From the IMG/VR virus record IMGVR_UViG_2718218139_000006: 16,353 bases of DNA; one strand, given 5' to 3'. Each line of letters begins with the position of its first letter. The first letter of the stretch is position 1. The stretch comes from a virus. Lineage: Duplodnaviria; Heunggongvirae; Uroviricota; Caudoviricetes. The notes below the pieces were generated by a model, which worked only from the letters and a program-made list of their open reading frames with translations, ran no database searches and was not told the origin of the DNA. This document shows positions 8,563-12,056 of this stretch, one piece after another. The position numbers and the translations under genes are program-made.

Positions 8563-12056
<3,494 letters not shown>

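Follow-up and report, generated by a model that had tools for sequence, protein, structure and literature searches.

Classical laboratory amber mutants of bacteriophage lambda head genes carry single-base nonsense mutations. The lesion described here resembles them in truncating the portal protein but differs in being an ochre codon, in coming from natural isolates obtained from cattle and humans, and in residing in a prophage with many other defects. The structure of the lambda portal protein gpB has been solved (PDB entry 8K38 and related entries). Its domains are the wing (residues 24-249 and 368-452), the stem (250-279 and 343-367), the clip (280-342), and the crown (453-511), and the loop 303-319 lacks resolved structure (PMC10721106).

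The sequence analyzed here, referred to below as the window, is a 16,353-nt stretch of DNA from the IMG/VR record IMGVR_UViG_2718218139_000006 (Caudoviricetes). Lambda gene B shares 97.9% DNA identity with the window over its first 459 codons, the nu1-A-W-B gene order is the same, and on the cos side the homology starts from lambda base 1. However, lambda has GAA at codon 313, retains codons 460 to 533, and differs from the window at five other amino acid positions of gpB. The lambda-like Sp8 prophage of Escherichia coli Sakai (O157:H7) has in common with the window lineage the site downstream of icd, the integrase and excisionase, a late-gene backbone of ∼96 to 99% identity, and the catalase and DUF892 genes carried as cargo farther downstream. 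Unlike the window, Sp8 encodes an intact 533-aa portal protein and the full set of head and tail genes; relative to Sp8, the window is missing ∼8 kb between the 3′ end of B and H, ∼6.6 kb between H and lom, and the replication region, its Q gene is truncated, and its int gene is interrupted by IS600. Closest of all are the loci of E. coli 2014C-3011 (locus tag C7A05_RS16515 for the portal gene) and four other complete genomes, which carry the same TAA codon and the same B/H and H/lom deletion junctions. They differ from the window in three substitutions in B, in the absence of IS600 from int, and in being 733 bp shorter between xis and Q.

Layout and state of the prophage remnant

Mapping of the window onto Sakai Sp8 and lambda revealed the order int (with IS600 inside), xis, a few small early genes, Q without its N terminus, the S-R-Rz lysis cassette, bor, ybcV, ybcW, and ylcI, followed by the cos region, nu1, A, W, the remnant of B, a piece of H, the 3′ part of lom, stf, and tfa. 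The ORFs of nu1, A, and W (positions 8017 to 10665, plus strand), which are located upstream of B and encode the terminase subunits and the head-tail adaptor, look intact. No genes for the repressor, N, O, P or other replication functions, the capsid, or the tail shaft were found in the remnant.

The gene for the late antiterminator Q (positions 3621 to 4191, plus strand, in the region 3589 to 4191) lacks its first ∼40 codons: homology to Sp8 starts 119 nt into the gene, and the orthologue is annotated by PGAP as “missing N-terminus.” This part of Q has been lost through a deletion that took out the whole stretch from the early-left genes to Q, including the immunity and replication regions. 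With the N terminus of Q deleted, autonomous late transcription of nu1-A-W-B is unlikely. At the other end of the element, int is interrupted by a 1,264-bp IS600 (positions 941 to 2204, minus strand) that is flanked by the 3-bp target duplication CTT (positions 938 to 940 and 2205 to 2207). This copy is 100% identical to annotated copies of IS600 and is absent from the five RefSeq relatives. In the nearest draft relative, the Mn-catalase gene, which lies downstream of the prophage, contains a second copy of IS600.

The window begins inside int. In the orthologous loci, int is located directly downstream of icd, as it is in Sakai Sp8, and the integrase gene thus occupies one end of the element next to the att site, with the icd position read from these orthologous loci. 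The element has also lost genes essential for induction, replication, and virion formation, both through the lesions in Q, B, and int and through the absence of the genes listed above. Accordingly, it is a cryptic (defective) Sp8-like lambdoid prophage remnant in E. coli that is unable to make particles, with or without the stop codon in B.

A nonsense codon in the portal gene

The first-pass annotation had reported an in-frame ochre stop at codon 313 of B in a position where lambda encodes Glu between the residues TGWIG and IAAYY, and had suggested a pairwise alignment with lambda B as a check. A base-by-base comparison of lambda (NC_001416, where B occupies positions 2836 to 4437) with the window, starting at position 10662, bears out each of these details. 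Read from its ATG at 10662, the plus-strand frame runs for 312 codons and is closed by TAA at 11598 to 11600, whereas codon 313 in lambda is GAA and the flanking residues are those given; a single G>T change at 11598 accounts for the difference. The comparison (lambda positions 2836 to 4212) is ungapped, with 29 mismatches and no indels over 1,377 nt, which corresponds to the 97.9% identity mentioned above. It stays in frame throughout, in agreement with the initial description of the lesion as a point nonsense mutation rather than a frameshift. The mismatches affect 28 codons, 22 of them synonymously and 6, codon 313 among them, nonsynonymously. Three more intact portal genes, those of PhiR11_1, E. 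coli 2014C-4587, and Sakai Sp8, likewise have G at the base equivalent to 11598.

The G>T change at 11598 is the sole reading-frame lesion within the surviving part of B (positions 10662 to 12038). Past the stop, the lambda-like frame remains open for 146 codons (314 to 459) up to the deletion junction at 12038/12039, where the similarity to lambda, having extended over 1,377 nt of B, breaks off sharply. In the same frame, five junction-derived codons and a TGA follow, so that the post-stop segment spans positions 11601 to 12056 (plus strand). The truncated upstream ORF, an N-terminal portal fragment of 312 aa plus the stop, occupies positions 10662 to 11600 (plus strand), and in the downstream part of B gene callers place a 135-aa ORF that starts with GTG at 11649. 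The Phage_portal_2 domain (Pfam accession number PF05136) is recorded on both pieces.

Taken as a whole, the segment 10662 to 12038 (plus strand) represents codons 1 to 459 of the 533 codons of a lambda-type portal gene. It shows homology to the PF05136 family along its length. It does not encode a complete ORF with the wing, stem, clip, and crown, given the stop at codon 313 and the deletion of codons 460 to 533. Its genomic context is not that of a head-gene cluster either: nu1, A, and W are present upstream, and C, Nu3, D, and E are absent. Thus, B counts as a pseudogene within the lambda portal family (PF05136) rather than as a functional member of it. The same portal lesion is already known from public RefSeq/PGAP annotation, in which the orthologous gene of 2014C-3011, C7A05_RS16515, is flagged as a pseudogene (“internal stop; incomplete; missing C-terminus”).

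When mapped onto the gpB domains (PMC10721106), residue 313 falls in the clip, inside the loop 303-319. The predicted 312-aa product would therefore end halfway through the clip and have neither the second segments of the stem and the wing nor the crown. Judging from the domain map and the fold, such a fragment is probably incapable of forming the dodecameric portal ring. The deletion after codon 459, taken alone, would remove the C-terminal tail and nearly all of the crown but nothing else, and the nonsense mutation is therefore the more severe of the two B lesions for the portal.

Deletions in the late region

The B/H deletion joins codon 459 of B to H at lambda coordinate 12351. Its junction, mapped against lambda, lies at 12037 to 12040 (12038/12039, plus strand) and shows a 2-bp AA microhomology. 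About 8.1 kb, corresponding to lambda positions 4213 to 12350, has been lost here, including the 3′ end of B, the genes C, Nu3, D, E, FI, FII, Z, U, V, G, and T, and most of H. The retained part of H, the tape-measure gene, is an internal 355-nt piece. A second deletion (H/lom), with a junction near position 12378, removes the 3′ end of H, the genes M, L, K, I, and J, and the 5′ part of lom. As a result, the internal fragment of H and the 3′ part of lom form a chimeric 191-aa ORF (positions 12061 to 12636, plus strand) with matches to the Pfam domains Tape_meas_lam_C and Ail_Lom. Codon 4 of this ORF is CAG in the window and TAG in 2014C-3011.

The stop in B is located 438 nt upstream of the B/H junction. 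The initial reading of the stop as an inactivating event separate from the deletions is upheld in the sense that the two lesions are physically distinct.

Distribution of the nonsense allele

A 61-nt query centered on the stop was compared with 5,426 complete RefSeq genomes of E. coli and produced 3,424 matches in 2,655 of them. The identical 61-mer was found in only five of the 5,426, namely, 2014C-3011 (isolated from a human in the USA), SMN013SH2, SMN152SH1, and SMN197SH3 (all from cattle), and OkiPb01679 (of bovine origin, Japan). The other ∼3,400 portal copies, from 2,650 genomes, each differ from the stop-containing 61-mer in at least one base, and the T is absent from all of them. It is also absent at codon 313 from all 43 phage records that match the 61-mer. 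Three further contigs on record encode exactly the same 312-aa product, among them two from GenBank draft assemblies. Both of these drafts carry the T: PVZZ01000002.1 (GCA_003015365.1) is identical to the window save for the length of one homopolymer, and NNXI01000114.1 (GCA_002486255.1) is fully identical over 1,988 nt.

The T at 11598 could in principle be a sequencing or assembly error that masks a genuine GAA codon. Single-base errors do occur, and a homopolymer in Rz that differs in length (C6 versus C5) between the window and its nearest draft relative indicates that these assemblies are not error-free. However, five complete genomes of at least three different origins and two draft assemblies have the same T, the site GGTTAAATT is outside any homopolymer, and the carriers belong to one lineage that has two deletion junctions in common. 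On these sequence comparisons, an error is effectively refuted, and the T is a real inherited allele. As for Rz itself, the run at positions 5619 to 5624 is C6 in the window and C5 in PVZZ01000002.1, where the called Rz product shrinks from 153 to 133 aa; either the frameshift is genuine, or one of the two assemblies contains a homopolymer sequencing error.

A second portal product of 312 aa, a member of the same 90% cluster, was considered as a possible case of a stop recurring in another allele background and was rejected as a contig-end artifact: it comes from five contigs whose final base is the G of a still intact codon 313. All five, which are draft contigs from other E. coli, terminate on the same G, the base equivalent to 11598, and such contig ends yield “partial” 312-aa portal proteins whose length equals that of the truncated product. 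This shared break may reflect a repeat boundary among co-resident lambdoid prophages.

The narrow distribution of the allele also bears on whether the stop is read through or suppressed, by an ochre suppressor or programmed recoding, with production of a longer portal-derived protein. The frame does stay open for 146 lambda codons past the stop, and nothing speaks directly in favor of such a product. A recoding site would be expected to be conserved among homologs; here the stop is seen in just 5 of the 2,655 genomes with the portal segment and in none of the 43 phage copies. No tRNA gene was found within the window, so there is no phage-borne suppressor there. Read-through would proceed only as far as the junction-derived stop at 12054 to 12056, and the resulting protein would have no crown and no capsid, scaffold, or protease as a partner. 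Late transcription, for its part, requires the Q antiterminator, which is truncated. Read-through is therefore extremely improbable.

Two carrier sublineages and their divergence

Alignment of the window with the orthologous locus of 2014C-3011 revealed 25 single-nucleotide differences in 12.9 kb (0.19%), evenly spread and mostly transitions, as well as an 11-bp indel, the IS600 insertion, and the 733-bp indel between xis and Q. Recombination was considered as the source of these differences and set aside: with evenly spread substitutions that are mostly transitions, vertical divergence is the simpler explanation. The 11-bp sequence TAAACAAACCC at positions 6117 to 6127 and the 733-bp segment at positions 2681 to 3413 are present in the window and missing from the five RefSeq relatives; judged by sequence, these absences appear to show further independent decay in the sister lineage. 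The TAA codon and the B/H and H/lom junctions, on the other hand, are common to the window lineage and the five-genome lineage. Since both sublineages carry all three lesions, these must be older than their split and have been inherited vertically.

Coding differences between the two carrier lineages number only 19, with 14 nonsynonymous and 5 synonymous, against a ratio of ∼3:1 expected without selection. Change since the split thus looks like neutral drift, as far as 19 coding differences can indicate. This pattern contrasts with the more ancient divergence between B and lambda, in which the 22 synonymous changes outnumber the 6 nonsynonymous ones. Gene by gene, A has three nonsynonymous and four synonymous differences between the window and the sister lineage, and the 312-aa ORF of the B remnant has two nonsynonymous (G42S and W157R) and one synonymous (at C123). 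The window-specific change in the latter pair hits Trp157, a conserved residue found in lambda, PhiR11_1, 2014C-4587, and the sister pseudogene alike. In stf (positions 12695 to 15772), the window differs from the 2014C-3011 lineage by six nonsynonymous and no synonymous changes; with six differences only, this pattern could reflect either drift or diversifying selection.

These figures are relevant to the idea that the 312-aa fragment has been kept for some beneficial role, such as that of a dominant-negative subunit poisoning the portal assembly of superinfecting lambdoid phages. The ORFs of nu1, A, and W and the 312-aa ORF are all still open, and the allele has lasted long enough for two sublineages to diverge by 0.19%. 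However, the changes look neutral, both in the remnant as a whole (14 to 5) and in the 312-aa ORF, where one of the two replacements affects the conserved Trp; the truncated Q makes autonomous late transcription unlikely, and the allele is rare, being found in 5 of 5,426 genomes. Retention of the fragment for such a function is thus very improbable. The same low likelihood attaches to the specific scenario in which Q provided by a superinfecting lambdoid phage allows the 312-aa fragment to be made, whereupon the fragment co-assembles with the incoming portal subunits as a poison. If that were true, the fragment would constitute a prophage-encoded host barrier to related phages.

Order of the stop and the deletions

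A 101-nt query across the B/H junction, run against the same 5,426 complete RefSeq genomes, retrieved exactly the same five genomes as the stop-centered 61-mer. Not a single genome in this set has only one of the two lesions, and exact-pattern scans of metagenome contigs and species-representative genomes returned no match.

One possible sequence of events is that the stop was the first late-region lesion in a still complete prophage, where it blocked virion production, and that the B/H and H/lom deletions came afterwards, when the head and tail genes had become useless. When B is compared with four intact portal genes, only two substitutions are private to the carrier clade, the TAA and a synonymous G>A change at codon 424, and just 3.7% of all possible single-base changes in the B remnant create a stop. 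The presence of a stop among so few changes makes it somewhat more expected as an early hit than as a product of later drift. Yet, even with approximately two substitutions, pure drift would still produce a stop with a chance of ∼7%, which makes this a weak argument, and the site came to notice for being a stop, which biases the comparison. In addition, none of the complete genomes, metagenome contigs, and species-representative genomes provides an example of the stop without the deletion. This order of events is accordingly a tentative proposal, with odds somewhat worse than even.

Origin and significance of the portal lesion

The best explanation, to which we assign a probability of approximately 0.93, is that the stop is one lesion among several in a decaying cryptic prophage that is not under selection, and that it arose once and has been inherited vertically since. 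The proposed path is as follows. A spontaneous G:C>T:A transversion would have turned codon 313 of B from GAA to TAA, so that translation would end after residue 312, in the clip domain, leaving a fragment that presumably could not build the dodecameric portal. Independently, the remnant at icd has lost the 3′ end of the portal gene, all capsid and tail-shaft genes, the immunity and replication region, and the N terminus of Q. The stop itself would have arisen in the ancestor of a small lineage of E. coli and would then have passed down by vertical descent, with no selection acting on the prophage.

For annotation and prophage typing, this portal gene is best labeled a pseudogene, and its 312-aa and 135-aa ORFs are not to be taken for two portal proteins. 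The TAA codon, together with the two deletion junctions, provides a handy clonal marker for a small, mostly bovine-associated lineage of E. coli. The biological weight of the lesion is small: it belongs to ordinary prophage decay and adds a further entry to the lesions documented in cryptic prophages. It does show point mutations building up alongside deletions and IS insertions in the course of such decay.
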